From Phoronis australis (taxonomy: Eukaryota > Animalia > Phoronida), in NCBI GenBank assembly GCA_002633005.1, contig NMRA01000342.1, positions 54,033 through 118,032 on the forward strand: DNA of 64,000 nt. Direction: 5' to 3'. A program made the position numbers and the translations under genes. Shown piece by piece: positions 23,686-62,887 of this stretch; the first letter of the stretch is position 1, and every line of letters begins with the position of its first letter. The notes under the pieces were generated by a model. The model searched no databases and was not told the origin of the DNA. It saw only the letters and a program-made list of their open reading frames with translations.

Positions 23686-23840
23686 TTACTCCAGGCGCCC
23701 AGCCTGGTCTTGTGAAAGTTGTTGCCGCTTTAGTAGGAATTCGGCGAGCTCTTCCTTCCTCCACGCCCTCTGCCCACGATTCAGAAAACTGTTGGCATCT
23801 TCTTCACTCAAAGACTGTCCATCTTCACTGACGTCATCAG
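23686..23840 (-). CDS. Gene A coding exon 2: (A)DDVSEDGQSLSEEDANSFLNRGQR|AWRKEELAEFLLKRQQLSQDQAGRLE*
   Basis: Pyrimidine tract plus CAG acceptor (ttctcttcgttgcattcag). Phase 1 joins exon 1 in frame, TAA at 23686-23688. Clearly homologous to the 40744-40910 exon. Confidence 0.85.
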
Positions 23841-24257
23841 CTGAATGCAACGAAGAGAATAGAAATGCATGTGACTGTTAAAAAAAGATTGTGTTTGAGC
23901 TGTGCGAGCAGCAAAAGACCTGTAGGTGGCGTGACAATATGAACTACAGTAAAGTAGTCCAAGACAGCTTGCGTTGATCAAGAATATTTTTATAAGAGTG
24001 ACGGTCTAAACGTTTTATTTTAAACTTCGTGGTCAAGTAGTGCGTCACTGGCTATGCTTCACTAGTCCATCATCAGGATTGAGAATGACCAACTTAAATC
24101 AATTACTCACAATCAAAGTTAGGCCCAAGAAGCAGATTGAAAGTTCAAAAGAACTCGGGAAATGCGACAATGCGCATGCGCATGTAAGTATCATGAAAAG
24201 GTCTGCAACTGTAACAGCAGAAAATCCAACAGCAAAACACACTCGAGTTGTACGTAC

Positions 24258-24315
24258 CTTTTACATACGCGATGAAAGCGACAATCAAGAAAACAGCCAG
24301 GCATATAAGCTTCAT
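24258..24315 (-). CDS. Secreted Gla-like peptide precursor gene A, coding exon 1 (signal peptide MKLICLAVFLIVAFIAYVK)
   Basis: ATG at 24315 in context caacATG. 58 nt = 19 codons + 1 nt, then donor GTACGT. Basic residue followed by a hydrophobic core. Same length and phase as exon 1 of paralogs B and C. Confidence 0.85.
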
Positions 24316-24734
24316 GTTGACGAATTGTTATGGCCACAGTATCGAACCATCTTCTGGATTAATTGTTCTCTCTTAAATACGATGCAAGTAGCCAATTTTC
24401 CCTAGGCTCAATTGTTTCAAATTTGCAACGATCTTTTTGTGCAAATAAGTAATTGTGTGATTATGCGTGAACTCTCCTTTTTGATAAGTAATTTTATTTA
24501 CAAAACAGGGAAACCTGTGTTAATTGCCATTAATAGCATAATTTATCGGGCTTCAAGTTTGCTCTGAGCATGCAAACAGTCTATTGAAATTCGGTTGCAC
24601 GTTATAAAACACTAACATATTGTTTACGTGCTATGTTGAAATTTGCTTTATTGCTAGATGGCCAATGAGCATATTTGGGTGTTCAGTGTCGAACCCAGGC
24701 TAATTTGAGTCTAATAGTGATTTAGAGTTCAGAT

Positions 24735-25505
24735 GGTATCTACCCCACCATCTTGTTGCGCCAACTAACAAACTTGTAAATTACAGAGTAGTATTTGATT
24801 GCTCAGCTAAGTGTGTCTGTCTGATGTACCGTGACAACTAATGACTGTAATGTATTACGCTTTTTGTGGTGGCCTAATGAGGATTTGTCTCAAGATCCGG
24901 TAGACTACCAGATGTTAGCCCAAATATTTGGAGAAACATCGTCTCCATGCACTTCCAGATATTGTGGCAAGCAAACTGTTGAGGATTTCGGAGGCGAACA
25001 TCATGATTTGACATAACAATTTCTAGGTCGACGTTTTGTTGAAATCTGTTGATTCAGAGTCCGGAGCTCTTCAACTAATAGAACAACTGGGTTATATAAA
25101 TGTCGAGAGCTGGGTTTCATTTCACTAGTAGTCACAATGTTCTTGTTAGCATTCCTGATTGTTCGAGGGCTCCGTCCGTTAAGGGTTTAAATCTTGATAA
25201 ATTGCCGATTGGTTATGCTTTTGGTGTTTAGTAGAATGTTGATAGCGACACATTTAGTTTTTGGGTTGTAGAGAACTCCTCCCTACGAGAAGAAGTATCT
25301 CGTCAATAGTAAGCTCTGTGTATGATCGTCTTGGTATAGCTTCCTCATCTATTTTGCCGGTAAACTGATTTCGCAGAAATTGTGCGTTGTGAAACTTGGA
25401 TGGGGTGAATTGATACCTGACGACATGGTGTGCCAGTGGAGAGGTAGGTTAGATTGTTTAACTAAGTTGAGTGTTATTGATATTCCCCACTGTTTTAAAA
25501 GAGGC
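24735..25505 (+). mobile_element. Older degenerate BEL/Pao RT-RNase H fragment
   Basis: RVVFDCSAK, LRFLWWP..DYQM..IFG.TSSP, SSVYDRLG, KLGW.E.IP..W, interrupted by stops and frameshifts. Confidence 0.85.
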
Positions 25506-26975
25506 CTGAACTACATGTTTCAGCATTTTAATATGAATTTTGAAAGTATAAAGGTTGGTTACTGGCATCCACATATTCCTAAAAGTGCACAGTATTTTTC
25601 TTTTTTACTTTGAAAAATAAAAACTTATTAGTTCCGTAAAGCCCCACTGCTAGAGTTGTTTTTCGTGACGTCACTGAGGCTGTCCAGTCGACAGATCAAA
25701 ATGTGCATACTCGCAACCTTTTTGTTTTTCTTTCCTGTTTCTTTGATTCATCCCAGGGCCTAGCCAGCCAGCCAGCTGTATGAACACTATCTTCAAAATA
25801 CAACTAGGTACCAGTAGCACTGTGTGTTGAGCTCCGTTAGACTTCGAAATTTCACATAGCCCGAGTAGATCTCCTCGTCACCTCATAGCGAAACTATCAA
25901 AATGTAGAGCTCTAAACCGGTAGGGGAGCGCGCAAATATCTGGGTGTCAACCAACACTCACCTTGCCAGCTGGAGCCATTTAAGAGAAAAACAATCTTGT
26001 AAGCGTTATTTTATTTCATAATTCTTCTGTAACAAAAAACAGTACGCTGAACACACGCTATTTCCTAAAACTTTGCGACATCTCTCGGGAAATGATGACA
26101 GCTTCGCAGGAGCAAATTTTTTTATGAAATTCGGTTACCTGGTATAAAAATACTAAAGACTTGTAGGGAAATGAAATCAGTTCTATTACTTTGTTGTGAC
26201 ATGTTAACCACTTCGAAGAACAGTTCGATCGCTTGGAGAAGAACAACTCGGGGAACGAAACTGGCCAATAAGGCAACAGGTGACCGTCGGCTCCGAAAGC
26301 CGACCTTATAGAGCGCACTCAAATTTCTTGGCAGCAGAGTGAACGACAGAACGCCAATTTTTTCAACACCAGTCAATAATTTATAGTTTACTCAAGGAAG
26401 AGTGCAATTTTTAATGACACTAATTTTGTGTCAGATTTTATTTGATCAGTTTTTACCCACGTCGGTGCAACGGCCGTTGTATATTTACTACACAGCTTGC
26501 ACCAAGGCAAGGCTACGCAGTCGGGGCCGATCCTGGCCCCTGCCGAGAACGGCATCGTTCCACTAATAGCCAACACTACACGGCAGTAAACTAATACTAT
26601 GAGCTTTTGAGAGCCAAGATCGCAGACGAATTATACACTGACATGAACCACAGTTCTGTAGCCAAAAGGTATCCCGACCCAATAAGCTTGATTTATGTTA
26701 TTGCCTTCACCCACGGTACAGTCTCAGTGACGTCAGACGCACGTTATCCAATAGAAATTAACATTGGAAAAACGCTTTTTTACAAAAATGTGAAAGAGTA
26801 ACAAAGTTGTGATTTCTGATATAGACTTTATTCACCAATTAAATTACATTAAAAATACATGTTATTGTACTACAGGAACATTTTAAGCCTATTTTATTTG
26901 ATGAGAGTTCAATTACATCACAACTATTAGTAAATAATAGTTGGTCTATTTATACCGACCTCTAGTCTGTATACA

Positions 26976-27025
26976 CTGTCACGACGTCTCGGTCGGTCTC
27001 TTCTCCGGCCATCGTCAGGTGTTCC
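26976..27025 (-). ncRNA. Minimal hammerhead-ribozyme-like motif of the PLE pseudo-LTR (degenerate)
   Basis: cac-CTGACGA-tggccgg-loop-ccgacc-GAGAC-GTC-gtg: CUGANGA core, stem II, GAAAC mutated to GAGAC, GUC cleavage triplet. Minimal hammerheads are an established feature of PLE pLTRs. Confidence 0.65.
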
Positions 27026-27068
27026 CGCGTTCTTAGAACAACGAGCACGGATAAGTGGTGTGATCTTT

Positions 27069-27151
27069 TGTGCGAGGCAGGATTTGAACCCACAATTTCT
27101 GAAATTACAGATAATTCGAGTCCAGCACCTCAACCACTACACCACGGAGTC
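27069..27151 (-). ncRNA. tRNA-derived sequence (Pol III A/B boxes) just 3' of the PLE ORF
   Basis: GACTCCGTGGTGTAGTGGTTGAGG...GGGTTCAAATCC. A box TGGTGTAGTGG, B box GGTTCAAATCC. Acceptor stem does not pair, so not a functional tRNA. Confidence 0.7.
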
Positions 27152-27184
27152 ATCCAATTATTTAGAGGGAATTTTATTATACTT

Positions 27185-28850
27185 AAACCTTCCTAAGTAG
27201 ACTGGGCCAGGTGTCACTTGGTTGTCTGCTTGGCTGACTGAGGACATTGCCTTGTACTTACATGTATATGATGGCTTCCTTGATCTTTCTCTTGGTCCAA
27301 CCGGTTTCACTGTCAAGTATTGGGATGTTATTCCACTGGATGATGTATTGTTTCGACCACATGTGTTCTGCTACTCCTGATGAGGTATTACCTTCTCTAC
27401 AACACCTCTTATGCTCAGCAATTCTTGTCTCCAGTGGTGTTAATGTTTCACCGATATACGATTCACCACATTCACATGTTATTTCATAGATGACATTTTT
27501 CTTTTTTCCCATGTCAGTTCTTGGCTTGACTTTTGTCATTCGCCGACCCAGTGTGTCTGAGCTGCGGTATAATGTTCTTATTTTAAATTCTCTACATATG
27601 CGTCCTAGCTTCTCGGTTATTCCGGGTATATACGGTAAGCACATAGTCTGCAGTGGGCGTTCTTCTGCCACTTTGTCTTTCCTCTGCGATGTTAAAGCCG
27701 ACTTGATGAAATCCCTTGGGTAGCCATTTCTTTCGAATGTCTCCGTCAGGTTGGTCATTTCTGCTTGGAGTGTTGTATCACTGCAGATTTCCTTTGATCT
27801 TGATGCAAGGCATTTGATTTTACCCTTCTTGACTCCTTTGGTGTGGTTGGAGTTGACTTACTTATAGTAGACTGACGTTGTTAACTGTCTTTCGACACGA
27901 GTCACTAGTACGTCTATGAATGGGAGACTATTATTTGTCTCTTCTTCCATTGTGAATCTAATTGTAGGCGCTATGTTATTCCGATGGTCAAGCAACTCTG
28001 ATGGATTTTCTGAGTCTTGGCTGAATATTGTGAATGTGTCATCAACGTATCGTTTCCACATCTTCGAGGGTCTGCTAGCTGAGCTGAGAGCTGTTTGTTC
28101 GAACCACTCCATGTACAAGTTAGCTAAGACTGGTGATAGTGGTGAACCCATTGCCATTCCTTGTGTCTGCTCGTAGAACTTGTCTTGGTATTGGAAGTAG
28201 GTGGTATTGACAGAGAATGTCACTAATTCCAGAATGGAGTCTGTTGGGAGGTTTACATCCTCTGATGGCTTGTGGTCATGTTCTAACTTTGACCTGAGTA
28301 ATGGGAGAACCTCTGCTGTTGGTACACATGTGAATAGGCTTTCGACATCAAAGCTCACCATGGTGTCATTTGGTGTAATGCTGACTGATGACAACATTGA
28401 CACGATGTGCTTCGAGTCCTTTACGTACGAGTCAGTTTTTTCAACTAGTGGAGATATGATGTTATTGACGAATCTAGCTAGTTGGTGGCAGGGAGAACCA
28501 ATGTTGCTTATAATTGGTCTCATCGGCATATCAGGTTTGCGTATCTTAGGTTTACCATACATGTGCGGGGCTGTTGGTTTGTTTGGGTTGATTCTCTGGA
28601 GTGTGTCACGTGAACCTTCTACAGTTTTCAGGAGGGATTTGATTTTTCTTTTTACGCTCTTGGTCTTGTCAGATTTTACTTCCTTGTGATGCCCGCTAGA
28701 TAGTAGATCAGTCATCTTCTTGTTGTAGTCATCCTTATTAAGTACTACTGTTGCATTGCCTTTGTCAGCTTGTAGGATGATGATGTTTTCATCCCGGGAT
28801 AGGCTACGTAGGGCCATGTCATCACACCTGTTTAAGTTGTTCCTTGCAAA
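27185..28850 (-). mobile_element. Penelope-like retroelement (RT + GIY-YIG endonuclease), 5'-truncated and inactivated
   Basis: PLE motifs ADKG, YGKPKIRK..PMRPII, SFDVESLFT, GMAMGSPLSPVLANLYME, RYVDD, then NVIYEITCECGESYIGET and VAEH. The two track ORFs are in one frame separated by a TAA at 27858-27860, where the usual PTHTxxYL stretch is missing. Confidence 0.95.
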
Positions 28851-28925
28851 AATGGTACTTGATAAGGATGACTACAACAGGAAGATGACTGATCTACTAC
28901 CTAGCGGGCAATTCAAGGAAGTAAC

Positions 28926-29375
28926 AAGATTATGGTTGACTGCCCCGATGACGTCATAAAGCATTACTGGGAGTTGGAAACTATTGGAATCGACGAGCCC
29001 ACATGTTGCGACACAGAATTGTCATCATTCGACAGTTACCGGAAAACGCTACTACGCGATGACGTCACGGTACTGTACATCGCGACCCTACCATGGAAAC
29101 AAGACCACGAACCCTTGCCTACCAATTACGCAACACTCGCACTATGATCAAACGATTCACATCTGAGAATTTACATCATTATGACAACATAATACGAGAT
29201 CAACTACAACGCAAATTCATTGAAGAAGTCCACAACGACGATCCAACCACAAGTCATTATTTACCACATCACCCGGCACAAAAGGACTCAACCACAGCAC
29301 CTTTCCGGATAGTATGCGACTGCAGATTAAAGACCAACTCAGTTTCAACCAATGCCTGGACACTGGTGAGGATTA
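28926..29375 (+). mobile_element. Inverted duplicate of BEL segment about 31000-31450
   Basis: YWELETIGIDEPTCCDT...LPWK...YLPHHP is the reverse-complement homolog of about 31000-31450. Confidence 0.9.
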
Positions 29376-32190
29376 TACCATCAGTGTCCAAGAATAGATT
29401 TAATTGTTTGACAAGTGGCGCCTTTGATTTTGAATTTGGCTTCAGTTCTTGAAGTTCACTATAGAGTAGTACTCCGACTGTGCATTTAATCCACAGTAAA
29501 CTAGCTTGTTGCAGTTCCTTAACAATAACATAATTTGACGTGTTACGTACACGTCTAGTGAACCGCATAACATATGCTCTTACACGCAATAACTTGTTCA
29601 GCGTGGCACATCTGTTGATGTCCGATATGTTGTTCATTCCAATTTCGTCTGGCGATCCCAATAATGATGTGTTGATAGCTGCTAAAGGGTTGTCGCAGGT
29701 GCAATCCACATTTTCCCAAGACTCGCAAGTCGTTGTCAACACTGCAGTGAGTGGCAAATCGCCAAGCGTTAGCCATGATGGCCCGTGCCACCATAACGTA
29801 GATTTCTTCAGTTGATCAATAGTAATACCTCTAGTTAATAAATCCGCTGGATTGTCTTTGGTGGGGCAGTAATTTATAGAGTCAAACTTGGCAGATTTGA
29901 CTTCACAGACCCGGTTCTGAAAAAATATTGGTAATTGTTTCGTTCCTGTGATCCAATGGATTGCTATTTGACTGTCTAGCCAGAGAACCCGTTTGGTGAT
30001 GTTTAGCGAACTAGCAATAGATGCGGATACATAGTTTGCTAGCCTGGCTCCAACTAAAGCCGACATTAGTTCCAAGCGTGGGATGGTGATTTGTTTCAAT
30101 GTTTTAACACGCGTTTTGGCCATTATGATTGATGATTCTTCCTTTGTCGTGAGAAAACAGGCAGCTCCATATGCATCACTGCTGCTGTCCTAAAACATGT
30201 GCAGTTCGACGTCGTTGGATTCTTCGTTGAAATATCGACGATTACATGTTGTCGTACGAGCTTTTTGTAGGTCGGCGTTTAATGTTCGCCATTCTTCTGT
30301 TAATGATGCTGGCAGTTCGTCATCCCAACGGTAATTTTCTATCCACAGTTTTTGAATGAATATTTTAATCCGAACGTGCACGGACGACAGGACTCCGAGA
30401 GGGTCGAATAGCGATGATGTTGCACTTAAAACATCTTGTTTTGTTGGGGTGGTAGCGTCCAAAGGATGTGATGTGAATTTGTTCTCCTAAAACAATTCAT
30501 CGGTGGTGGTGTCCCATCGCATTCCTAGCAAATTGACTGTGGGGTTACTGTCTTATATGTTATCCTTAATAACCAGACTCCTTATTCGAGGGTCATTGGC
30601 AGCCCAAGAGCGTAAATGGAAGCCAGCTATGCCAAGTACCTCGTTGATTTCTGTGTAGTATTGGTTTGCTTTGCCTCGGGGAATGCTGCGTGCAATATTG
30701 TCAACATAAACATCATTAGTCACGTTGGTGAATGATGGTTTGTTTTCAATGTCCAAGTGATGTTTTAGCACCGAGTTTAGAATGAACGGTGAGAACGATG
30801 ATCCAAACAGTACAGAAGTGAAGCGTAGAACTTTGAAGTCACTGTTCCGATCGTGTGGATTGGACAGTCAGAGAAATTTGATGTAATTTCGGTCCTCCTA
30901 AGCTAACTTAACGTCGAGGAATGCCTTTTCAATGTCGCTTGTTTTGTGTACTCGGAAGAGTAGGAGAATACGAAATGCGATGTCTCCAAGCAGACATTCA
31001 CCTGTGTCCAGGCATTGGTTGAGACTGGGTTGGCCTTTCATTGAAGCGCTGCAGTCGTTTACTATCCCGATAGGTGTTGTGGTTGAGTCCTTTTGTACCG
31101 GGTGATGTGGTAAATAATGACCTGTGGTTGGATCGTCGTTGTGGACTTCTTCAATGAATTTGCGTTGTAGTTGTCCTTGTATAATGTTGTCATAATGCTG
31201 AAAATTCTCATGTGTGAATCGTTTGATCATAGCGCGAGTTCTGTGGTGTGCCATTACGTAATTGGTAGAAAAGGGATCGTGGTCTTGTTTCCATGGTAGG
31301 GTCGCGATGTACAGTACCGTGACGTCATCGCGTAGTAGGGTTTTCCGGTAACTGTCGAATGATGACAATTTTGTGTCACAACATGTGGGCTCGTCGATTC
31401 CACTTGTTTCCAACTCTCAGTAATGCTTTGTGATGGCATCGGGGTTGTCAATGATAACCTTGAAAGAGGCTCATGTATTCAAGTGAGTCGGCAAGTGGGT
31501 GGGGCCGGAAAGCATGTATTCAAATTTGGTTTGGACGGCCGTTGGTCCATTGCCGCGAATGACGTGACCGCAGACAATGGTCCAGTAGAAATCAGCGCCA
31601 ATCAGGATGTCAATGTCGAATGCCGAACTGCTCACATGGTTGGCCAGGGCCCGGTCTCTAATCTTTGTACTGGAAACGAACTCGAAACTATTTTTGGCAA
31701 TTTCCCTGCTCCTTTTGTGCGAACTTAAGATAATCGGTTATCAGACTGTGCTCGAATACATTATAGTTTATGCATAGGAGTTTCTAGTTCAAGTTTGCCC
31801 TTGAACACACTTATATTCGTGCTACAAAATCGAGTAAAAACTCGAAATTTCGAGTTCAAACTCGAACTTATTGCTTTAATATTGGGCTTACAAACTGGGA
31901 AGTAAGGGCAATAAATTATCTACGTAAGTTATTGTGTACTCGAGCTTAGAACAATAGACACTTATCTTGAGTTCGCCCAATAGTAGAGTGGAAAGTGCCA
32001 AACATAATTTCGAGTTCCATTTCGAGTAAAAGGATTGGAGACCGGGCCCTGATCTAGTTGTTGTAGATACGGGTGTGCTGTCACCGTGAGCGGTACGTAA
32101 TTTCTCATAGGAGTGGAGGTTGGAATGATGAGTGTAGGAATCTCAATCGGTCCATCCCTTGAGTGCAGGCTGATTGATGTTACTGGTGTA
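29376..32190 (-). mobile_element. BEL/Pao LTR retrotransposon remnant (protease, RT, RNase H), frameshifted
   Basis: IDILIGADFYW..GPTAVQTK (protease region), LPWK, YLPHHPV, DIEKAFL, VYVDN, FDPLG, WDDELP, TIPRLEL, DSQI, NPADLLTRG, LWWHGPSWL. Confidence 0.95.
31648..32048. mobile_element. PIF/Harbinger-like MITE inserted in the BEL protease region (homolog about 61690-62067)
   Basis: GGCCCGGTCTC...GAGACCGGGCC termini, long imperfect internal palindrome, CAG/CTG 3-bp flanks. Interrupts BEL coding (YLQQLD|LANHV). Confidence 0.8.
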
Positions 32191-33295
32191 GATTGAATTC
32201 ATAGCTAAATGTATGTTTAAAAAACTTTAATTGTATTTTCAGGCGATACACTGATTGAATGTCCACAAGACTATGAAGTCTGGAAACTTTTAAGATAAAG
32301 GAAAATTTTCCAAACTATGCCATGACACTCATAGTGATGATGACAATACGACAGTCTCCATAGAGGTGGGAAAAGAGTCATTGGGATCTGTTTGTGATGC
32401 TCAAAGTGATGATAGCAGGACATTTGATAATGGCGTAGCGAAATTACCAGGATCTGGCCTTACTAGTGATAGTGACAATGAATATTTTAATGATGTTTTT
32501 TGTGTCTTAAGCTATATAGTGCCACCTTCGTTCCCTAGGCTCTTCATCATCACCATAATCACTTCAGAACCTGAGTTTTGTTAATTAGACAATACAGTCA
32601 AATGGCATTGCAGTTTTTGCAGTTTAAACATCTTTAAAAATAACTGCTTTCAGTTATTGAGAATTGTAGTCACTATGTTTTAGAGATTTTGTATGAAGAA
32701 AGCAAACACGACTTAATCTAAAACTATAAAATTTTCGTTAATTACATTTTTAGTGGTAATTGTTACTAAGATGGTCGTATTATAAAATTGTGGTGACTGG
32801 AAGTCTGCTAAGATGCGCAGGATAAAACTGTTTACATGCATATCACAAGCATTGTTTCTATGCATGTATATGTATCCTCTATTTTTGGTGCCCATCACTT
32901 GATTTTAATTATATTTTGTGTATTCATAGTTCACTATGTGTAAGATCAATAAATGATTAAATGTTCATCTGAGAGAGTTTTTGTTAGCGAATTAAGCAAG
33001 AATGCCATTCACAATGGTGTCAACGTATTTGTAGAAGTGTATTTGTATCAAAGGTATTAACTTACACCGTAGAGCCTGACACAGATATTGTCATCTGCTC
33101 ACGTTTCAGAATAATAAACAATTAAAAGCATCCCACATTTCTAAGTTTGAAAGTGGTAAAATCTGTTGTGGACACATACATGTTATTAAAGTGGTCTTTG
33201 GAGGAGTGTATTTTGGCACATAAACCGAATGTGACACATATGTACATGCAGTTGCAGGGCTTGTATATTGGGTGGATTGTAAGAACAGTGGAAAA

Positions 33296-33690
33296 CCGGG
33301 ATATATAATGTAGTGGGGCATATATCTAATGGGACATATAAAGTTGCGGGATATATATTGTATACACCTAACGGGACATATATACTTGCGGGATATATAT
33401 AGTGCTTGAGCATACACCTAGTGAGGTATATATAATTGCGGGATATATATTATATATACCCCCAGAACAAGGTCTCAAAAGTTTACCCCATTTCAAGGTT
33501 TCAGATAATAACCCCATATCTGCATGCAAACATGTATGCGTATGTATATGCCCCGGAACAATATATATCCCGCAACTATACATACCTCACTATGTATATT
33601 CCCCAGTGCAATATATAGCCCGCAAGTATATTTGTCCCGTTAGGTGTATACAATATATAGCCCGCTACTTTATAGCAAAGCTGCCCCCAC
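33296..33690. repeat. Foldback-like palindrome built from GCGGG(A/C)TATATA subrepeats
   Basis: Tandem units of about 40-50 bp on the left arm are mirrored on the right arm. Confidence 0.75.
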
Positions 33691-36600
33691 GCAAAAACTG
33701 ATCGTGGGCATTTAGAAGACTCCATGCCCTTGAAATCAACACAACAAAATTTGTCAGCCCTTCATCCAGGCTTAATAATAGGTGTCTGAATTTCACTATT
33801 TTCAGACCGCACATTTATGTATTTGTGATGTTAAACCAGTCACTAGTTGTGCGTCGTGCGTACGCATCAACATGCCGTGGTATAACACAACAGTTAGCAA
33901 AATTGGTTAGCTAAAATGTTTTTAATTAATCTTAAGCACTCAAGTAGTTCCCACTAAAATATAAAATTATATTAGATTTGTTCATCTAACCAAACTAAAG
34001 CATACACTCTGCGTTAGTTCAATAATGGCTGATCAAAAGTGCAGGCTTGTGAATCTGGCGCTGCCAAATGCATCAAATGTGGTACTTTTACAAACTGCCG
34101 AGAGAAAAACTTTGAAAACTATTAAGAGAGGTACAAGGAACTTAGCGAGACTTTTGAGAACCTTAGGAGTGAGGGGAGGTGACGTGAAGGAGGTTGAACG
34201 TGTCCTCTCAAGTAGTCTGTCTGCCTCGCAGAGGTGCAGCAGGAGCTAGATAATCTACGGTAGTACATGCAGATTCACTTGCATCGATAGAACCCTCGAC
34301 ATGTATTGGTGTTGCCAAAGACAATGAGTAGGCTAAATCCAGTGCACACAAGAGCGGAAATTCGACAGAGGTCTGAAAAATGACCAAGGACGTAAATCGA
34401 GATTCAACGTCCTGCTTCAACTGTGTGAACTCAGGTACGAATTACCAAACTGCAGGGTATGACCCTGAGGAATATTTTTAGGAGCAAGTCATTCATGCAT
34501 AAATACTTTTATTGACGCACCGTGATTGCTTATAACTTGGGTCTTGGTGCTTGATGATATTTTATTTCAAATGTCTTCGAAGTATATCCACTGTATTGTT
34601 ACACAACGGCTGTATGACTACAGAGATCAACAACTGGTCAATAGGAATGCCATACCAACAGTATCCTGATTAATATGTTTGGTTAAGTCCATCAGTTCTG
34701 TTACGCGCGTAGGACTGCAGCAAGTACCTGATATCACAGAACTGTTGTCCAGCGCTGTCATTCGGTTGTGGTCTTCGAATCTTTCTCTGTGGTTCCAATA
34801 ACGATAAGCGCTTAATGGCCAGTATGTTTACACAGAAAATAGGTGGTCATCATAACTTTTCATGATATCCACCAAATGTGTTTAAACATTTTACATGACT
34901 TTAAGGTTATAAAAAACCAGGTTGGTGGTGAACTAGGGTGGGGACATCTTGTACGGTTGCATTGGGTATTTTACACGGTTTTGCTAGAAATGCTTAGCAA
35001 ATACATAGTAAACAGGGGTTGTTACTCAAGCACGCTAGAGCAACCACCTCTATCAAGGCTCTGTTTTTATTTTGGTTGATCCCTATAGCCTATGACTGTA
35101 AACGTGTAAAAAGCATATTTCCAATACAGCTGATGGAATACAACTATGATTTTTCAAGGATATGCAGAAGCTGCCAGACAAAACAGGCTGACTTAATGTG
35201 GGTACTTTGGGATTCTTCTTCTGTGGTCACCCGCGGGAAACCTGGTTGTATAGAGAGATTTGCATCTTCATAGTTCCCGTTGTTATAATAAACATACTGT
35301 AATGTATTTATCGGTAACGGTCTGATATACGCCCATGGTTCTATACCCATGTGACCCACGTTGTTACATGTATATCCAACTGTTACGGGGAGATTTGTGC
35401 AGGATGAATATGTCATTTATTTATCATTAAAATATGATACAGATACAGTAAAACTTGGGTTAGCTATGTACATCATAATAATATTGTATGAGAAGTATTA
35501 GTATTGAAGTAAGTATATAGTGGTTGTTGTGTAGCTAATTAAGGATATTAGTTGTTTACTGAAATTTATCGCCTCCTATCAGTGCATAGGAAAGGAATCA
35601 GCATATTTGTCTCTAACCATGTGTTTATGTTATGCTAGCAAGAGTTGTGTAACTTTAAAAGGAATTGGTCGACTTTGGGGTGAGCGCATCTGGCAACACC
35701 AATAGTCTTGTTACTATTCATAAGAAATTACTTAAAGGTTTGTCTGTCCTTGACCACATTTGGCGAAAGCTTAGGTTCATAGTTGGAATCCAATGATGTT
35801 GTTCCGAGAGTTGTTTTGGAACTATGAGTACATTTCGATGAAGTTTGTGGGTTTTATGTTTTGGTCTAACTCGCTCACCATTATTCTGCTTGAGTATAAG
35901 TATACTGTTAGTTGCTCAAGAAGGCATATTTCCTATGAGAGGCAACCAGATTGGTATAGAGGTATCAGATATTTCTTGGAGAGAGGCAACCAGCTTGCTA
36001 GAGAGGTATCGCAGATATTCCTGAAGAGATACTACTGGTTTGCTGAGAAATATCACAAGTTATAGAAATTCGATGGACTGAATGTCAATCCGATGCATGT
36101 AGCAGAAATTCGATGAACTGGATTTGATAGGATTACATTGTATCTAGAATTCGATGGACTGAATTCGATATGTTGTACGATGGATTGAACTTCATGGTTA
36201 TTCAGAAACATTTCATCAGGTGAAGACGGCTTGGAAGACTGGATCGAATGATCAAAAGAAGAGGAAACTCCTAATAACAAATGTAACACTGGATCCAAGG
36301 CCGACGCCAACAACGGGAAACGTGATCACAGACTGATAAAACTAACCTTCTTTGCAAATTTTTATGATTGTTCACTTATGGAAATTCAAACATTTAGACA
36401 ATATACTCAGTATTACATCCAAATCAAATTGTGTTGTTTCAACAGCCCACCGGCAAGATATTCACAACGTGCTCTTACCATCACACCTTTCATTTCTTCA
36501 GCTCTCATTGATTCGAGTTCATCCTGCAGATCAGACAGTCTTCTGTCCAATAAAGCGGGTCAAATGTTAAGTGCAAAAGTGATTTTTAAGCTACAGATTT

Positions 36601-36939
36601 CATAATCACGGATATGATTTTCATTCATAAATGAAGTTCAGTCACAAAATTTGGGGTCGTGAAGTGCAGTTTTCAATTAACTTTCAGAATTTTTCCATCA
36701 GCTCGTACTTACATGTACATGATGTAGTAGGGAGACCGTTCATATTTATGGCGATTCAGCTAATTGCCAGTCAAATTCTATTGATCATATGAGTGTGACC
36801 CAAAAAGCACCGTAATGACCCGAAACCGGTCAAGGAGTGCATTCCATCAAAATGCTTCTTCCTCTACAGGTTTTTAGATAGACTCTTCGAATTGTGTTAA
36901 CATGTACTGTAGGTTCTGGAGACGTACACCTGAAATTCA

Positions 36940-37223
36940 CGTGGAATATCAATCGGATCAAGGGATCCGAGTTTCCGGGTCCAATGTCATCAAGTGCAAA
37001 AGTGTTTTTTGAACTAGAACTTTCATAATCACGTGGTTTCCATTCAGAAAGGAAGTTCAAGCAGTTTATCGTTAAATCCGCCATCTTATTGGTCCCATCA
37101 CGTGACCTAAAGAATATAAGTCCGGAAAGATTTCTGCCCCTCACCGGGACTCGGACCCAGTACCTTCTGCTAACCTTGCAGACGCTCTAGCCACTGAGCC
37201 AACGGAACCACTGGATAAACAAA
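36940..37223 (-). mobile_element. tRNA-derived SINE
   Basis: Head GGTTCCGTTGGCTCAGTGGCTAGAGCG...GGTCCGAGTCC (A and B boxes) at 37136-37210. Flanked by GAAATTCA direct repeats and absent from the duplicate near 44660. Confidence 0.75.
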
Positions 37224-37232
37224 GAAATTCAA

Positions 37233-37390
37233 CCAGCCTCCCGTTCAGTAACGCTAGGACCTCGCTAAAAAGCAAGACTTCGCGAGATTTCGTGAGATAT
37301 TGTCGTGCACTGTAAATGAGAACGCGTGACTTTGACTAGGTTTTAGCTAGGTCTTAGTTTATGTCCTAGCGTCTACTGAACGCACGCCAG
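37233..37390 (-). mobile_element. MITE family 1 copy
   Basis: Reverse complement of 50568-50727; absent from duplication copy 2. Confidence 0.85.
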
Positions 37391-40081
37391 AATTAGTAGT
37401 GGGCATGTTATCCGTGTTCTCCTTTGTCTACAAATATATATTGGATTATTCCACGCCTCACTGAAAAAGATTTATTAGTACACATAGGAAAATCATTCAC
37501 AGAATTTGGAGTCATTGGGTGCAACTTTGGGCTCATTAAGTGCAATTTTATGTTAAATTTCAGACTATTTCAGTCAGCTCCTACTTGCATGTTGTATTTG
37601 AGAGATCGTTCATATCCATGTTGCCTCAACCAATTGCCAATCAAACAGTATTGATAATATGGGAATGACCCAAAATGCAATATAGGATTGCGGTTAGCGA
37701 ACTTTTTATTCCTCTCTTCACACTCGCCCGCCAATTTTTCGCTCCCCGGACCACCGCATAGGTGGATCCACGATTTTCACTTGGGGGCCATGACAGAGTA
37801 TTAGCCAGGACTTTGCCCATAAGACATTCACACCTCCGAACTGCCAAACGGAAGCTGCGAGAATCTCAGGAGGGATATGACTTCCTAGGCTTCCTCCAAA
37901 TCTGCCACTGCACGGTTCTCGTAAAATGTTCAGACTCCAATAGAAACAATCTTGTTCCGACTCAAGCGGGCAATTAAAAGCAAAATTATTCCTGTGACTA
38001 AAAATGGTACAGTGTACTAGGTGGTAACGATACCCAGAAAGTCAGCCCTACTAGATGGAGTTTGCCTCGCAAAATCGTATCACAATAACATGTCTTACCA
38101 TTTCGGCCTTTCAATGTCTTATTACCGAAAACACTTGGGTTAACGGCTATGTTCACGCATAATCCTACGTTCTACCTTTGAAGTGTTTCATAATAAGCGC
38201 TCTCTGCTCTACTAAGCGTTCAGCCTCAACTTTTGCGCCCACAGTTCAGGCTAACGCCCATTATAGAGCACTACAAACGACCGCGCCTGGTCTGAAATTG
38301 ACACGCAGTCTATATATAGTGAGTCATTCTCGTTTTACAAAACAACAAATTTAGTTTTTTTCTCAATATGTGAAAACCAAACCACGGCTTTGTTTTATAC
38401 CCTCGAAAGAACGTTAACACTAGTAACGCACGTGTAGTTTTATGACTGGCCTATTTTTTCCGTACATGGAAGGTATTGAGGAGCAAACTCGAATTACCCG
38501 ATGGGAATTCGCAGAGTCGGGAATTATTTCGAGGCTATTCATTTCATGGAACAGTAATTGTTTAGTATGTGAATAGCATAAGTCCCACAATTTTGTTGTG
38601 ATATTTGCCCTCAATTGTTTCCACGCCTCCATATACGTACGTCATTCGGTTAGGGCATCGTTTCACGGAATTTTTTCAACAGCATGTTTTTCAAACGTCG
38701 AGTTAAATTGCAAAATTTGGGCTGTGAACAAAAAAATGGAGGTAGTTGGCACTCCGAGTTTGCTTGGATTTTTAATGACTTTGATTACAGCCATATACCC
38801 TGTAGCAGGTCAGACATAGCAAACTCGTGGATACTTTTTCAACGGATATTTTCTCCGTTTTCACATTGCAAACTTTGCTACTCGAAAGCACGTGTCGGTT
38901 AGAGAGCACTGACTCAACTTTCACACCGGCAACTAGACTTGCGCTCTAGAGCCTTTCAATAGCGGTGGTGAAAAATGAGTAACGCGACTTTAATGGCATC
39001 GAGCTCTGCATATCAAAATGAATAGTGACCCAAATTCCAGCCAATAAGATCAGTGTATGCCTTGGATCACGAATTCACCGCAAGGTTAAAAATGCAAATG
39101 TTTTACTGACAAGCGAATAGTTAAACACTGAATCTTCGAGGAAATCTAAGTTCTTTTGAAGGGCTCGATTTCCGTTATTCGCGTATCATTAGTGAAGATA
39201 ACTTTTTTCATGCAATCATAATTTTGAAGTATGAAGGATAATACGTAATGTGTAATTCGAATGTGACATGTGTGACACTAAGTTCTACACTTCCAATGCA
39301 AGGACTTCCAACCTTGTTTGGATTCAAGCTCAGTTTCTGACTATAAGGCGACATGGAGAAATGTGATGTTGTACGCTATTCCCGAACGCAAAAATAACAA
39401 AAAATCATAGCAAAATCAACATTTCTAACCTAACGTACGTGTTATTTGAAAAAAAAAATAATTTTCAAATTTGTTATAAGTTAGTAGCTGTCGCAAACTA
39501 ACTACTGTTCTACGGCTTTGTTGAGAAACTGTGTCGAGCCCTTTTCAACAGATGTTGCTTTTGTGCTCTCACATCGCTATTTGAGCAGTACATGTATGTT
39601 GAGTGCTCATGTTGATTATTCCTTGCAAATTACAAACTGCATATTTCTGAGGCAAAACAAAATTAAACACCAGATGTCCAACAAAAGAAAGGGGACATCG
39701 TTAAATTGTTTGGGGTTTGGCGAAACAGTTTGATTCGCCCATCGTGTAACGAACGTAGTGTAAACTGGTGACACCTATGTCTGGAGCCTGTGTGTTTGAG
39801 ATTTTGGGTGATCTGCTCAAATCCAGCAAATTTGCATTTTGCGGCTGCTGTTCTGCGTTAGTACACGGTAGCGAGGCAGTTGTATGATTTTGATTAATGA
39901 GTGGTCTCTCTGTTCAGTTTACTCAGTACCGCACGCATTTTTCCCCTTGAGTTTATCCATCAGTGTAGCGTTAAAGTGGACCCTGAACCATGCCTCTGCT
40001 TATGACACCGAGAAGCACGTGTTCCCGCTGATGCAACAGTAACGCCATCTGTGCTTTACTGTCGTGCTATCGAACCACCAG

Positions 40082-40230
40082 GGCCCAGTTGCATAAAAGT
40101 TATACGCGGTATAGCAGCAATGATGGCGCATTATCCCGCGTCACGTTGCTATTGTTGAACAATTCACCTGACGTCATGTAACAATCAACTTATCCAGCAG
40201 ATAACTTTTGATGCCTTATGCAACTCAGTC
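40082..40230. mobile_element. PIF/Harbinger-like MITE (homologs 43177-43374 and 62412-62578)
   Basis: GGCCCAGTTGCATAA...TTATGCAACTCAGTC, TSD CAG; empty site near 48040. Confidence 0.8.
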
Positions 40231-40743
40231 CAGATTTACTTTCGCTTTGATGCGCGAGTATTCGTGAAACCTACTATAGTCTATGGTGAAACTATAATGT
40301 AGTAAGCCTGTACTTCTAGTAAGCATAATCATTATTTCGTTTCTTAGTTTGATTAGTTCCTGTTAAAGTGATATACCTATGCTGGATTCAAAGAACTGAC
40401 CAATCACAACACGTCAATTTTAAGTTTTAACTCTGTCATAAAATTCGATGGAAACGTTATGGAATCTATTTAACTCAGTTTTATCAGATATTATTTGTCG
40501 CAGGTGAGAATCAACCATTTGCTTCCACGACTTGATAACCAGCAATGCCCATTAGGTGTGTTACCTAGGCAACATCTTGTGAGTATGGTGTGTGATCACC
40601 AGTTTTATTTCACACTCTCGAGTGTGAAGACACACGCATTGAGTTTTGAAATCAATGCAGCTTGAATACCAAACGAGTGACATAATAAGTTCCTGTCAAG
40701 GTTTATCTCATGGGGAAATACATACTTCAGTTTACAAGTCATA

Positions 40744-40910
40744 TCAGTTTTGAGGTCGGCCAGGGGCTCCTCTGTGACCCTTAAACAACAATTCCCGTAG
40801 TTCCTCCCGTCTCCAAGCCCTCTGCTCACGATCAAGGAAACTGTTTGCTTCTTCTTCGTAGAGCGAGTGCCCGGCACTCAACATCCCCTCAGGATCGCTT
40901 GGTTCATTGG
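40744..40910 (-). CDS. Gene B coding exon 2: (A)NEPSDPEGMLSAGHSLYEEEANSFLDREQR|AWRREELRELLFKGHRGAPGRPQN*
   Basis: Acceptor tctcttactttattcag, phase 1, TGA at 40744-40746. AATAAA on the minus strand at 40604-40609. Homologous to gene A exon 2. Confidence 0.85.
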
Positions 40911-42234
40911 CTGAATAAAGTAAGAGATAAATCAATGACGAGTTTTTTTCAACTTGTAGTTATGTGGGACTCAACAAAATTTCCAAATTGGACTATCTGT
41001 AGGGTCATATCTGAAATAGCTGGTTGGATTTTAATGAAACTTTCATCAGATACTGTGCTTCATCCACTATTCCCCAAAATGCTGCTTCGAATTATTTTGA
41101 AAGTGTTTCACTTTTGCATGAGCTGCTGTCAAAATATAATTCTTAAGATTTTTATGGAAAAATAAATAAAAGCAAACAAAACAAAAATAAAATCCAAACA
41201 ACTTTTACACATATTCTGAGATTTTAGTGTGTATTGACCGAAACAACGTTCAACGTTAAACGTGCCCAAAGTTTTTTAGCAGTCTGATGAGTTTGTGATC
41301 GAACGATCGAAGCAGTGGTGTTTGTGGTGTTTGTACCGCTTTGACTCCTTTGCATTGCTGGGATTGTCAGTTAACTGCTACACAACATACAACCAAATCG
41401 TATGCAGCTGGTTCTTGATTTTGAAAACAATGAACTCGATTTAGTTTGGAATTACAATCGTATCCTTTTCAACATCTGTCTGCAAGAGCTGCAACAGGGA
41501 TATTACGTCATCTTTACCACGCAGTAAATGTAGTTAACATTAGTCTATTCGAAACGCTTCTCTGCTGCTCTATTCTCACTTGACGTCTGAAAAATGTCGG
41601 TCAGTAAGTAAAATATTTTATATTTCTCATTTCATTCTCGGACACTCTCGTTTTAACATGCCAAATATTCGTTTGTCAAATTACAAATGAAATGTTTTGA
41701 GTAGTGCGAGACGGGAAAATTTTGTAGGCAATGAGGAAGCAAATTCCCAGAAATTATCAGTAGTGCTGAATATAACACAGTGCCTTTACGGTCTCAGTCT
41801 TACGCTCTGCCGCGTAGCCAAATACCGCGAGTAAGCGGCAGATTATTGTATATTTATATGACAGACACTAGCCTCGACTTCAACGAATGCCTGGAAGACA
41901 GCAGCGAGAATTGTCAATTTGTAATAATATCACAAATACGGGGTTTGTTGTTTTATTACTCTCGCCAATGCTAATGATTTCAAGAAGTCTATCGCATTCA
42001 ACAATTATCCCATGAATCCGTTTTGAGCAGATCGCTTTCTGTAGACTTACTATCTTTATCGAGTGACGTATTCTTTCCAGCTGTGGAAACAGCTTTGAAA
42101 GTGTAACCTTTATTTTACTGGGAGGTTAGCGCCCAACAGAAATCGCTTTACAAATATTACGTGTGGCTTGAATATCTAAAAACTAAGAACAATAAATCCT
42201 ATGGAACTGCTGAAGTCAATAAAAACTGTGTTAC

Positions 42235-42292
42235 CTTTGACAGCTGCTGCCGAAACTACCAGCGTGAAAAATAACACGAGTGCGGAACACAT
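42235..42292 (-). CDS. Secreted Gla-like peptide precursor gene B, coding exon 1 (signal peptide MCSALVLFFTLVVSAAAVK)
   Basis: gccATG at 42292, 58 nt, donor GTAACA, hydrophobic core. TATA-like CTATATAAT about 55 nt upstream. Confidence 0.8.
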
Positions 42293-42691
42293 GGCTTCGA
42301 AACGTCATCAACAGATATTTCAACACAACGCAAAATGTTGGGCGTATTATATAGACGAATAAAGTGTTCGTCTTACAGTTTTTATGCCCTGCAACGTTGT
42401 TTGTGCAAATTCTAAGTCCCCTGTATTGGGTGCGATATCTTTGTAATATGTTAGCCATAGGCAAATCAGTGTGGGAATGTAAATAAAACGGACTACAATT
42501 GGCACCTGCAAACGTAATTATTTGTAATTTCATTCGCTTTGGAATTGTACGATGATTGAAGATAATTTGCCGCATTTAAGATCTCTAAATGGCTCACAAC
42601 ATTTACACTATTGGTAAACTAATTCGCTGTTTTTTTCAAAAAATGGAAACGCAGATATTTTTTGTCGTTGATCTGCATGATTCTACAATTC

Positions 42692-42849
42692 TCAGCGTCC
42701 CCATTTCATTTCTTCAATAATTTCTTCATAGCTCCATCCGCGCCTCAGACGATTCAGAAATGCGCTAGCTCTCTCTTCAGTCTCCATGCCCGATATCTCA
42801 GTCAAGGTTGGTGCGGAATTCTTGCTAGTGTTTGACATTTCTTTGCAGG
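42692..42849 (-). CDS. Gene C coding exon 2: (A)CKEMSNTSKNSAPTLTEISGMETEERASAFLNRLRR|GWSYEEIIEEMKWGR*
   Basis: Acceptor ttccgactttcag, phase 1, TGA at 42692-42694. Furin-type RLRR site and C-terminal GR amidation signal. Confidence 0.85.
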
Positions 42850-43391
42850 CTGAAAGTCGGAATAAGAATTACACTGTACCTCTAGTCTGGCACTGAAGCT
42901 CTAAGGGGATTTTTTGGTAACTGAATAGGATTGCCAGATAAATTCCTTTTCAGCCAAAGCGAATAACATGAAAGAATGTTTTTCTTCGATTCATTTAAAA
43001 CTCCTAATAAGAAATTTTCACCTCACTCTAGATAAGCTGTGTCAATGTAGTTTATTGGGCTTTTTATGTTAACGTGGTATGATCGTCGTTTACATGGAAA
43101 TTTCAAAATGAATGCATATCATTCTTTGACGTCTTTCTACTCTGTTTTTCTAGCTTGACATTCCTACCTTCTCCAGAGCTAGGTTGCATAAAACTTTTTA
43201 AAGTCATGCAACAATCGTCCTTTTGCAGCGGATGAGTTTAAAAACTCATGCGCTGCATACATGCAAGTGTGATGGTTGCATGACGTCAGGTGCATTGCTC
43301 AACAATAACAACGCGACGAGTGATAATGCGACATCTTTGTTGCTATACCACGTACGAATTTATGCAACTGAGCTCAGGTGACCAATCATAC

Positions 43392-43449
43392 CTTCTGCCC
43401 AAATGGCCAACGAGAAAACCAGCGTCAGAATGAGAATGGTCGTCTTCAT
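43392..43449 (-). CDS. Secreted Gla-like peptide precursor gene C, coding exon 1 (signal peptide MKTTILILTLVFSLAIWAE)
   Basis: gcaATG at 43449, 58 nt, donor GTATGA. An acceptor (gtttttacag) ends 11 nt upstream of the ATG, suggesting a non-coding first exon. Confidence 0.85.
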
Positions 43450-45801
43450 TGCTTCGAGTACTGTAAAAACACTGACGTAGAGTGGCTGTGGCTGTGTCCA
43501 ACTAAGTGTCGAGTCCTCGTTAACCGACGTTTAATGCACACGAGCACAGGAACGCAGGCTCTGTGAACAACATAAAGCCGGCAGCCAGAACTTATTTACT
43601 TTCACAAGCGCTGTTTTCCGTTAACGCGTTAAAAAATCTAAGGTATTTTCAGTTTTGAAGAGAAAGATTGTTGTTTTCCATTTTTCGCTAGGGTGTCTAC
43701 TTTGCGAATTACTTGAGATTTTCTGAAAAGGCTACTCCTTTGTTGACCGATTTTGCTGCACTGTTGTTAGTTTACCTGCTATTGAACAAAACTGTAGACT
43801 ATTTCTTATTGATTTATAAAATTTTCGTTCGTCATCATCATCATCATCATCGTCGTCATCAACACTCACATTGAGGTCTTTCATTACTTGGTGGAACGAT
43901 GTTGCTCTAACACCAAGTCTGTTTCTTTTTTGTTGGTTCGCACTCTATACAGGTCGCAGTTTTCATCCGATTCGCACGAAATTTACACACATGTAGTTCC
44001 GGTTTTGCTGGAAGCCTAATTTTTTTCCGTCAAGATCGGATTCAAAATGGCGGACTTGGCAGCCATTTTGTTTTCGAATTCAGATTCAAATGCTTACATG
44101 TATGGCGGCCGCAAACTTTGACGTATAGGACTGAAAATTAGTACGATTATTGGAACAGACAAGTACTATAGATACACCATCAACCATTTATTTAGAGTCA
44201 AAGCTGGTGGAAATAATTACCATTGCGCATGTGCACCTCGGGGTGATTTGGCCAGTTGATGTGATATTGTAGAAACTGACACAAATGCAAAATGCAATAT
44301 ACACCCTGTAGCATGTTGTGATTTTGTAAGTAAAATTTAAGATATTTAGTCAGTGTTCTGTTTGAAACTTTGTTGTCCAATTTATTTACAGATGCTGGTG
44401 TTTCAGCTTTCATTTTTCAAATTCATATTACACTCAACCTCACTTAACTAAAAAGTGAGGCCTTACCTGAGTGTTGGCTTGTGTACAAGCTTAAGGAAAG
44501 GTGGAGACTTAGACAGACTGGCGAGTTTCAGGTAGTATACATGTATGTGATGACAATTTAAAGGATAGGCCCTGTATTTTGAAAGGTTAAATTTGGGAAT
44601 GTCATACTTGAACCAATTCGTTGGTATTTAGATCAACATGTAAGTTCTAGATGCGTACACCTGAATTAGTAGTGGGCATGTTACCCATGATCTCCTTTAT
44701 GTGTACAAATATACCTTTTTCAGAAAAAGATTTATTAGTACACAAAGGAAGTTCAGTCACAGAATTTGGGGTCATTAGGTGTAACTTTGGGGTCATTAAA
44801 TACAGTTTTATGTTAAATTTCAGACTTTTTGAGTCAGCTCCTACTTACATGCTGTATTAGAGAGATCATTCATAGCCATGTTGGTTCAACCAATTGCCAA
44901 TCAAGCAGCACCGATAATATGAGAATGACCCAAAGTGCATTATAGGATTGCGGTTAACGAACTTTTTATTCAATCTTCTCTTCACACACCCCCGCCAATG
45001 TTTTGCTCCCCGGACCACTGCAGAGGTGGATCCAGGATTTTGAGTTGGGGCGGAGCAAGGCAGAGTTTTAGCCAAGATTTTGACTGTCAGACATTCACAC
45101 CCCCGAACTACCAAACGGAAGCTGAGAGAATCTTAGGGGGCCATGACTCCCTTGGCCTCCTCCAAATCCGCCACTGCACGGTCGTCGTAAAATGTTCAGA
45201 TTCCAAGAGAAACAATCTTGTACAGGCTGAAGCGGGCAATTAAAAACAAAATTATTCCGGGTGGCTAAAAAGGGTACAGTGTACTAGGTGGTAACGATAC
45301 CCAGAAAGTCAGTTTGCCTCGCAAAATCATATCATAATAACATGTTTTACCATTGCAGCCTTTCAATATCTTATTACCTAAAACACTTAGGTTAACGACT
45401 ATGTTCACGCATAATCCTACGTTCTACCTTTGAAGTGTTTCGTAATAAGCGCCCTCTGCTCTACTAAGCGTTCACCCTCAACTTTTGAGAATTTCCTATG
45501 AAGTGCCCACAGTTCAGGCTAACGCCCGCCATAGAACACTACAAACGACCGCGCCTACATAGTGAGTCATTCTCGTTTTACAAAACAACAAATTCAGTTT
45601 TCAAGAAATGTCTTTTCTCAATATGTGAAAACCAAACCACGGCTTTGTTTTATACCTCCGAAAAAAGTTTACAGTAGTAACACGGGTGTAGTTTTGTGAC
45701 TGACCTATTTTTCCGTACATGGAAGGTATTGAGGCGCAAAGTTGAATTACCCGATGGGAACTCGCACGGAGTTGGGAATAATTTCGAGGCTATTCATTCC
45801 A

Positions 45802-48402: not shown

Positions 48403-48571
48403 TCATAGTTTTGGGGTCGGCTAGGGTCTCATCTGCGAAACTTAGGCATTATTTCCCGTAGTTCCTCCACTGTGCAAGCTCTCTGCTCACGATCAAGGAA
48501 ACTGCTTGCTTCTTCTTCGTAGAGCGAGTGCCCAGCACTCAACATCCCCTCAGGGTCGCTCGCTTAATTGT
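48403..48571 (-). pseudogene. Pseudo-exon copy of gene B exon 2
   Basis: Reads N*ASDPEGMLSAGHSLYEEEASSFLDREQRACTVEELREIMPKFRR*DPSRPQN, with in-frame TAA and TGA. The matching signal exon is deleted in this copy. Confidence 0.85.
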
Positions 48572-48675
48572 CTGAATAAAGTAAGAGATAAAACCATTGA
48601 CGAGATTTTTAAACTTGTAGTTATGAGGGACTCAACAAAAGTTCCAAATTGGACTATCTGTAGTATCATATCTAT

Positions 48676-48808
48676 ATTTCTTCAATAATTTCTTCATAGC
48701 TCCATCCGCGCCTCAGACGATTCAGAAATGCGCTCGCTCGCTCTCTTCAGTCTCCATGCCCGATACTCAATTAAGGTTGGTGCGGAATTTTTGCTAGTGC
48801 TTTGCAGG
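48676..48808 (-). pseudogene. Pseudo-exon copy of gene C exon 2
   Basis: High identity to about 42707-42849 but with indels, and truncated before KWGR* at a deletion junction. Confidence 0.8.
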
Positions 48809-62700: not shown

Positions 62701-62887
62701 TTTTCCTGATTTTTCCTTTGCTGAGAAAAAACTGCAGAAATATTCCGGTTTGGATATTACAGACTAGAACGGGGTGTGACCGCTGAAAACGACGCATGCT
62801 GCCCGTTTCCTATGTTTTCAATTTATCTGCTGAGGGGACTGAAGACATTTGTCTATTTTTGTCTCTCTTTTCTCTCTTTCTTTGCAG

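Follow-up and report, generated by a model that had tools for sequence, protein, structure and literature searches.

A cluster of two-exon genes in Phoronis australis encoding putative secreted prepropeptides with a pro-segment that resembles a carboxylase recognition site

Precursors of secreted animal peptides follow a common grammar, in which a signal peptide is followed by an acidic spacer, a basic cleavage site and a Gly-basic terminus, and which is read by a convertase, a carboxypeptidase and an amidating enzyme. A propeptide can also direct the vitamin K-dependent carboxylation of Glu to gamma-carboxyglutamate (Gla); in the structure of the carboxylase GGCX with factor IX, the study names Ala -10, the residues at -7/-6 and Arg -4/-1 as anchoring or highly conserved, describes Phe -16, together with -17, as a highly conserved hydrophobic anchor and the central propeptide as helical, reports impaired carboxylation for the substitutions F(-16)A and A(-10)T, and regards some 7-8 residues of linker as 'just enough' for the first Glu to be reached (PMC12647623). 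Propeptide recognition is reported to be conserved from human to fly, as fly GGCX recognises human propeptides, even though no Gla protein of the fly is described (PMC12112360); the carboxylase itself is said to be conserved throughout metazoans (PMC3141003). Among short peptides, conantokin-G is Cys-free, carries five Gla residues and acquires helicity with divalent cations, and it is the conserved signal sequence that defines each conotoxin superfamily (PMC4278219). In the Wamide/MIP peptides, Trp is conserved at both the N- and the C-terminus and a terminal Gly donates the amide, and their precursors are repetitive, with multiple cleavage sites around peptides of 9-12 aa (PMC7270403). Here we describe a 64,000-nucleotide stretch of the genome of the phoronid Phoronis australis (contig NMRA01000342.1, positions 54,033 to 118,032 of the forward strand; hereafter the window, to which all coordinates refer) in which three intact minus-strand paralogues, A, B and C, form two-exon genes on one plan and appear to encode precursors of secreted peptides.

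Gene A (exon 1, 24315..24258; exon 2, 23840..23686; intron 417 nt) encodes 70 aa, gene B (42292..42235 and 40910..40744; intron 1324 nt) 74 aa and gene C (43449..43392 and 42849..42692; intron 542 nt) 71 aa, all read from the minus strand. In each of them the coding sequence (CDS) of exon 1 is exactly 58 nt long, the donor reads AAG/GT, the pyrimidine-rich acceptor ends in CAG, and the intron lies in phase 1, with Ala-20 as the split codon. The exon 1 CDS of gene A (24258..24315) runs from the ATG at 24315 to the donor AAG/GTACGT and encodes Met followed by a hydrophobic, signal-like segment, and its exon 2 CDS, stop included (23686..23840), encodes an acidic pro-region, RGQR and AWRKEELAEFLL-KR-QQLSQDQA-GR-LE. 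The corresponding exon 2 CDS of gene B (40744..40910, with exon 1 at 42235..42292) encodes a pro-region, REQR and AWRREELRELLFKGHRGAP-GR-PQN, and that of gene C (42692..42849, with exon 1 at 43392..43449) a pro-region, RLRR and GWSYEEIIEEMKW-GR-stop. Upstream of gene B the sequence contains TATATAA (42347-42353), and an AATAAA lies on its 3' side (40604-40609). Alignment of the three exon-2 products gives 11 invariant columns (E E A F L R R W E E E), which together form the block EExAxxFLxRxxR[AG]WxxEE[LI]xE, located at 23740-23805 in A, 40792-40857 in B and 42713-42778 in C. When all 2871 six-frame pieces of the window that are 15 aa or longer were searched with a local hidden Markov model (HMM) of these products, five pieces matched with E-values of 1.7e-32 to 1.9e-12, far ahead of the next best (E 2.9), so the family exceeds chance. 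The original prediction, which was made from the letters and their open reading frames (ORFs), had described the three paralogues, their shared architecture, the precursor sequences and the conserved motif correctly. Its description of the peptides as Cys-free applies to the portions after RxxR but not to the precursors, each of which contains a single Cys, at residue 5 in A and residue 2 in B, both within the signal peptide, and at residue 21 in C.

Genes B and C are real. RNA-seq data under the same species label (runs X2-X4 from one study and contigs of X1 from a second) were examined, with the reads placed on the interval 40600-43600, that is, on genes B and C. The B junction (40910/42235) was crossed by 37 reads in X2, 40 in X3 and 420 in X4, and the C junction (42849/43392) by 54, 134 and 174 reads, respectively, with one Logan contig of X1 crossing each; the junctions that had been predicted at 42235/40910 and 43392/42849 were matched to the base. 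First mates of the junction reads were all on the plus strand and none on the minus strand, and the intron ends read CT..AC on the plus strand, which in a stranded library corresponds to minus-strand RNA with GT..AG introns. Read depth within the introns was 0 to about 2, against exon depths of up to about 460 for B and about 150 for C, both in X4. Depth over the bin that contains exon 1 of gene B (42216-42316) was 21-256, and many B molecules end at 42336-42341, with the X1 contig ending at 42320. Over exon 1 of gene C coverage continued to about 43528 and was below 1 beyond, and the 3' untranslated region (UTR) of this gene extends to about 42512-42550. Gene A is probably a real gene as well, judging from a reading frame that is intact, splice sites that are canonical and a signal of selection.

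Several further observations concern expression of the pair. Depth over B was about 10-fold higher in X4 (~460) than in X2/X3 (39-53), whereas C differed only about two-fold, and these unlike shifts indicate that the two neighbours are regulated differently. The contigs of C in X1 had a very high word depth (~3000-8000); one X1 contig that crosses gene B 'goes back 1561' (42320/40760), and another runs beyond 43513 with letters like those of C's exon 2. Abundant short transcripts probably gave rise to these two odd contigs as artefacts of the assembly graph.

The precursors have the anatomy expected of secreted peptides. Signal peptides were judged by simple rules (a hydrophobic core and small residues at -3/-1) rather than with a dedicated predictor, and by these rules all three precursors begin with one: the mean Kyte-Doolittle hydropathy of residues 3-17 is 2.25-3.03 across the three (3.03 in A), and small residues occupy -3/-1 as V-x-A in A, V-x-A in B and A-x-A in C, a pattern that predicts signal cleavage at the exon junction. 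The signal peptides of the three paralogues are unlike one another. The pro-regions that follow are 24 (A), 30 (B) and 36 (C) residues long, with net charges of -5, -6 and +1, and end in RGQR, REQR and RLRR directly before the invariant [AG]-W. Beyond RxxR, tails of 26, 24 and 15 residues, respectively, open with [AG]-W-x-x-E-E and are otherwise dissimilar, except that all three have Gly-Arg at or near the C-terminus, at tail positions 23 (A), 20 (B) and 14 (C), giving the ends DQA-GR-LE, GAP-GR-PQN and KW-GR-stop. The tail of A also contains an internal Lys-Arg. A basic processing site and a C-terminal Gly-basic signal are therefore present in 3/3 precursors.

The conserved block of A and B is under strong purifying selection, as judged from the sequence comparison of the two. 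Over a block of 28 codons the proportion of synonymous differences (pS) is 0.886, which is saturated, and that of non-synonymous differences (pN) is 0.173, with 20/28 residues kept; saturation of the synonymous sites implies that A and B are old duplicates. As DNA the two genes can be aligned over only 47 nt, at 85% identity (23759-23805 in A with 40811-40857 in B). This alignable stretch comprises the pro-segment as far as the Trp codon, and its pS of 0.64 is below that of the saturated part encoding the released peptide, which could be due to local gene conversion or to constraint at the RNA level. Comparison of A or B with C gives a pN of 0.44-0.46. From the RNA reads 22 variant rows were classified, seven of which fall outside both CDSs. 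In gene B 6/8 coding variants are silent, for which the chance would be ~0.004 if one change in four were silent (our own arithmetic), and its two replacements, one in the signal peptide and one in the N-terminal pro-region, are both outside the block.

The gene models, the transcription and exact splicing of B and C, the signal-like exon 1, RxxR and Gly-Arg in all three precursors, together with the selection seen in A and B, lead us to an orphan prepropeptide reading: the genes encode, somewhat more probably than not, secreted precursors of ~70 residues that are cleaved to short acidic Trp-containing peptides with a signalling or effector role. The signal peptide would be removed at the Ala whose codon the intron splits, a convertase would cut after the conserved RxxR, and the C-terminal Gly-Arg would be used as a cleavage and amidation signal. 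The predicted products would then be GWSYEEIIEEMKW-amide from C, a peptide extending up to ...GAP-amide from B and one up to ...DQA-amide from A, the last of which would yield AWRKEELAEFLL if the internal Lys-Arg were also cut. Once released, these short, acidic, helical and possibly amidated peptides would act extracellularly on receptors, either as a hormone- or neuropeptide-like signal or as an effector, and the acidic pro-segment EExAxxFLxR may be used by a processing enzyme for docking or sorting.

A number of points weigh against such processing. Cleavage at RxxR and at Gly-Arg is a prediction from sequence, and only C (RLRR) has a canonical furin site, the Gln at P2 in A and B (RGQR, REQR) making theirs weaker than the classical one. 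An AlphaFold2 model of the B exon-2 product draws one continuous helix straight through RxxR (predicted local distance difference test, pLDDT, 94 over residues 21-40). Neuropeptide precursors normally conserve the active peptide best; here the pro-segment is better kept than the released peptide, with 8/16 against 4/12 residues identical between A and C. The model of gene A, probable as it is, draws on frame, splice sites and selection, and no homologues were found in the database and literature searches made. Gene C adds to these doubts, since four of its seven coding variants in the RNA reads are replacements and one is a nonsense variant (Tyr60, TAT>TAG, at 42728 on the minus strand) that would cut the post-RxxR peptide to three residues. 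Reads with this allele amount to 37/59 in X2, 32/77 in X3 and 1/101 in X4, and the stop is derived, because a dead copy of C's exon 2, described below, keeps TAT. Variants at 43399 (Trp17>Cys) and 42831 (Asn26>Ser) have read shares in X2/X3 similar to those of the nonsense allele. Either C is dispensable, with a common null allele, or the stop reads come from a near-identical paralogue that is not seen here; the frequent nonsense allele and the replacements indicate that C is weakly constrained. Purifying selection on the motif, one of the tests proposed for the genes, is visible between A and B.

The cluster also contains two dead copies of exon 2, which lie beyond the interval of the original prediction and were overlooked when a cluster of three was proposed; the count of three intact genes stands. 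Copy C' (48676-48910, minus strand) consists of exon 2 of C preceded by the last part of the intron, without exon 1, and is damaged by deletions of 10 nt and 1 nt and an insertion of 2 nt. Copy B' (48268-48673, minus strand) holds exon 2 and the 3' UTR of B, likewise preceded by the last part of the intron and again without exon 1, and has an in-frame TAA at exon-2 codon 3 and a replacement of the Trp. Intron, CDS and UTR of B' are 90.4%, 85.4% and 83.1% identical to those of B, respectively; as the CDS is not above the intron, B' has no excess of coding conservation. The two copies illustrate the appearance of decayed family members in this region. C' is joined directly to B', head to tail, and the pair looks like a duplicated C-B block from which ~1.7 kb was lost, from C's stop to the end of B's intron, a stretch that would include B's signal exon.

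Searches for relatives support the statement that these peptides belong to no named family, since Pfam, PDB, protein, metagenome and literature searches all returned none. In Pfam, the three exon-2 products matched no family and no Gla domain (PF00594) at E ≤ 10, and the sub-threshold rows EF-hand_like, Ccdc124, MDY2_C and DUF433 were set aside as chance. The profile search of the PDB at the same threshold gave no vitamin K-dependent chain, and its rows for MafA, a designed protein and an enoyl reductase were taken as three chance matches. A word-indexed search of 5.8 billion proteins with the alignment produced three candidates, none of which scored, and a scan of metagenome contigs gave 525 pattern matches with 0 confirmed. 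For the B exon-2 product the best score in the ESM Atlas was 0.85, to unnamed or bacterial clusters, which is uninformative, and six exact peptide strings had no occurrence in the literature searched. A profile search of 1,835,955,588 representatives returned two matches at E ≤ 0.001 (P0005 and P0006), one a 770-aa helicase-like protein with six repeats and the other a protein of 203 aa with four; P0005 contains six and P0006 four stretches in which a '[GD]W[ST]xEE..EL' helix start follows a basic helix end. Both were rejected as relatives, being repeat proteins of prokaryote or phage type that share only the helix-start motif. Their basic helix end followed by G/D-W-S/T-x-E-E is a close look-alike of the R-[AG]-W-x-x-E-E junction of the family. 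Peptides this small are often unannotated. The proteins searched do include those of annotated insects, a coral, sea urchins and a starfish, so the blank has some weight.

The alternative that survives best is the one put forward in the original prediction, in which the pro-segment is a gamma-carboxylation recognition site and the products are helical Gla peptides, short and Cys-free, that bind Ca2+. It amounts to the prepropeptide reading plus one modification: the carboxylase would dock first, and the Glu residues at +5, +6 and +9 (and +10 in C) would become Gla before the propeptide is cut. We consider it unlikely, though a serious candidate. Ala -10, Leu -6 and Arg -4/-1 occur as claimed in 3/3 precursors, accompanied by Phe -7, and coincide with the positions recognised by the carboxylase, and Glu-Glu is invariant at +5/+6. 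Within the window, the pattern A-x-x-[FILMV]-L-x-R-x-x-R is found at only 3/325 other open RxxR sites in six frames, and at 0/325 does it come with EE at +5 to +8. The pro-segment is kept better than the released peptide, as would be expected of an enzyme docking site. The block is helical in the AlphaFold2 model, like the central propeptide in PMC12647623, and the reported conservation of recognition from human to fly (PMC12112360) and of the enzyme throughout metazoans (PMC3141003) is a further point in its favour.

Against carboxylation stands the anchor at -16. The absence of Phe -16 had already been remarked upon and is borne out, this position being Ser in A, Ser in B and Met in C, with Gln, His and Gly, respectively, at -17; the nearest hydrophobic residue, Leu -15, is present in A and B only and is out of register with C. 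The first Glu lies only 4 residues past the cleavage site (+5), set beside the linker of 7-8 residues given in PMC12647623, a comparison that depends on how the linker is counted. In addition, the Pfam and PDB searches (E ≤ 10) detected neither a Gla domain nor a vitamin K-dependent chain, and the resemblance amounts to one evolutionary observation, selected with hindsight from among many windows. In periostin, a recognition site predicted by motif is reportedly not carboxylated (PMC4537219). The vertebrate propeptide strings quoted in support of the proposal were not matched in the searchable literature. The phase-1 intron, likewise offered as a similarity to Gla proteins, is indeed in phase 1 in 3/3 genes, but a phase-1 intron after the signal exon is generic for secreted proteins, and the analogy with toxins and conantokins would draw on Glu spacing only. 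A Gla peptide family outside cone-snail venom, with a vertebrate-like propeptide that lacks the -16 anchor, seems doubtful from these sequences. If it were true, the genes would provide natural substrates for a carboxylase for which targets have not been described in most animals other than vertebrates.

Almost as well placed, and also unlikely, is the possibility that RxxR remains uncut and that the product is a secreted mini-protein of ~50 residues, a single helix or helical hairpin in which the block is structural. The AlphaFold2 model, made for the B exon-2 product with an alignment of only 3 sequences, has a helix over residues 6-47, with the highest confidence across RxxR (pLDDT 94), and the weak P2 residue (Gln) in A and B would fit with an uncut site. 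That such a motif can be purely structural is seen in P0005 and P0006, which use '[GD]W[ST]xEE[LI/A]xEL' as a structural repeat. The model is, however, built from 3 sequences, isolated helices are a default output, and an amphipathic helix of 50 residues would probably be unstable on its own. The pattern of conservation, with Arg -4/-1 invariant and -2/-3 freely variable, suits a protease site over a packing surface, and the Gly-Arg near the C-terminus in 3/3 precursors also speaks for processing.

Very improbable is a reading in which the genes are transcribed ORFs, young and restricted to the lineage, that have little if any function and may be in the course of loss: the empty protein and metagenome searches, the dead copies B' and C' nearby, the C nonsense allele at about half of the reads in 2/3 runs and the richness of the region in transposons would all agree with it, but A and B, although old duplicates, keep 20/28 block residues (pN 0.173), B polymorphisms are mostly silent (6/8), architecture and splice phase are kept in all three genes, and transcript levels of B and C are substantial.

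The remaining features of the window are mostly of mobile elements. A retroelement on the minus strand occupies 27261-28871, with the reverse transcriptase at 27861-28871; its 337-aa frame matches Pfam RVT_1 (E 3.5e-11) and has 1920 relatives in insects, a coral, sea urchins, a starfish and reptiles. The 199-aa frame that follows has no Pfam match, and we take its C-terminal part to read like a GIY-YIG nuclease, as in Penelope-like elements. Pieces of a Pao/BEL retrotransposon protease are found at 29272-30189 and 30193-30486 (minus strand), and the frames at 29063-29449 (plus) and 30901-31416 (minus) contain, in opposite orientations, peptide stretches that are nearly identical, which suggests that 29063-31416 contains inverted or nested copies of an element. 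An Arrestin_N exon-like frame at 62725-63153 (plus strand; Pfam E 5.5e-11) is the only other recognisable coding piece of host type in the 64 kb, and a word-indexed search found no longer relatives of it, while its ESM Atlas matches place it no more finely than Eukaryota. Together with the spliceosomal introns, the retroelements and the arrestin exon mark the host as an animal, and the relatives of the reverse transcriptase resolve its lineage no further. Rfam and tRNA scans of the window were empty.

Gene callers routinely miss genes for small secreted peptides, and the prepropeptide reading would make this cluster an unannotated peptide gene family with clear processing signals, usable for peptidomics and receptor de-orphanisation. 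What it adds is a propeptide resembling a carboxylase recognition site, in front of peptides that are short, easily synthesised and abundant at the RNA level.

Compared with described systems, the precursors resemble GGCX substrates of the factor IX type in having a signal, a propeptide with Ala -10, a hydrophobic residue at -7, Leu -6 and Arg -4/-1, and an early Glu-Glu, but differ in having no hydrophobic anchor at -16/-17, no homology to the Gla domain and no Cys loop, and in a mature part of only 13-26 residues. Their first Glu is one to two residues closer to the cleavage site than that of the vertebrate factors. With the conantokins of the Conus B superfamily they share the form of short, linear, Cys-free, Glu-rich peptides that would be released from a prepropeptide, with helicity predicted here. 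Their signal peptides, in contrast, vary even among paralogues, and the profile search revealed no sequence relation; with neither a shared signal sequence nor homology seen, conantokin membership was set aside as unsupported. Trp near the N-terminus in 3/3 peptides and the predicted Trp-amide of C (Trp-Gly-Arg-stop) recall the Wamide/MIP family, whereas each gene here encodes one peptide, A and B do not end in Trp, and C would have 10 residues between its two Trp; membership was rejected here, given a single block per precursor and a Trp-Gly end in 1/3 (C only). From generic animal prepropeptides the family differs in a spacer that is better kept than the peptide and in that no orthology to a described family was found, but it agrees with them in its signal, acidic spacer, basic sites and C-terminal Gly-basic, in the tandem arrangement of two-exon genes and in the moderate to high transcript levels of B and C.

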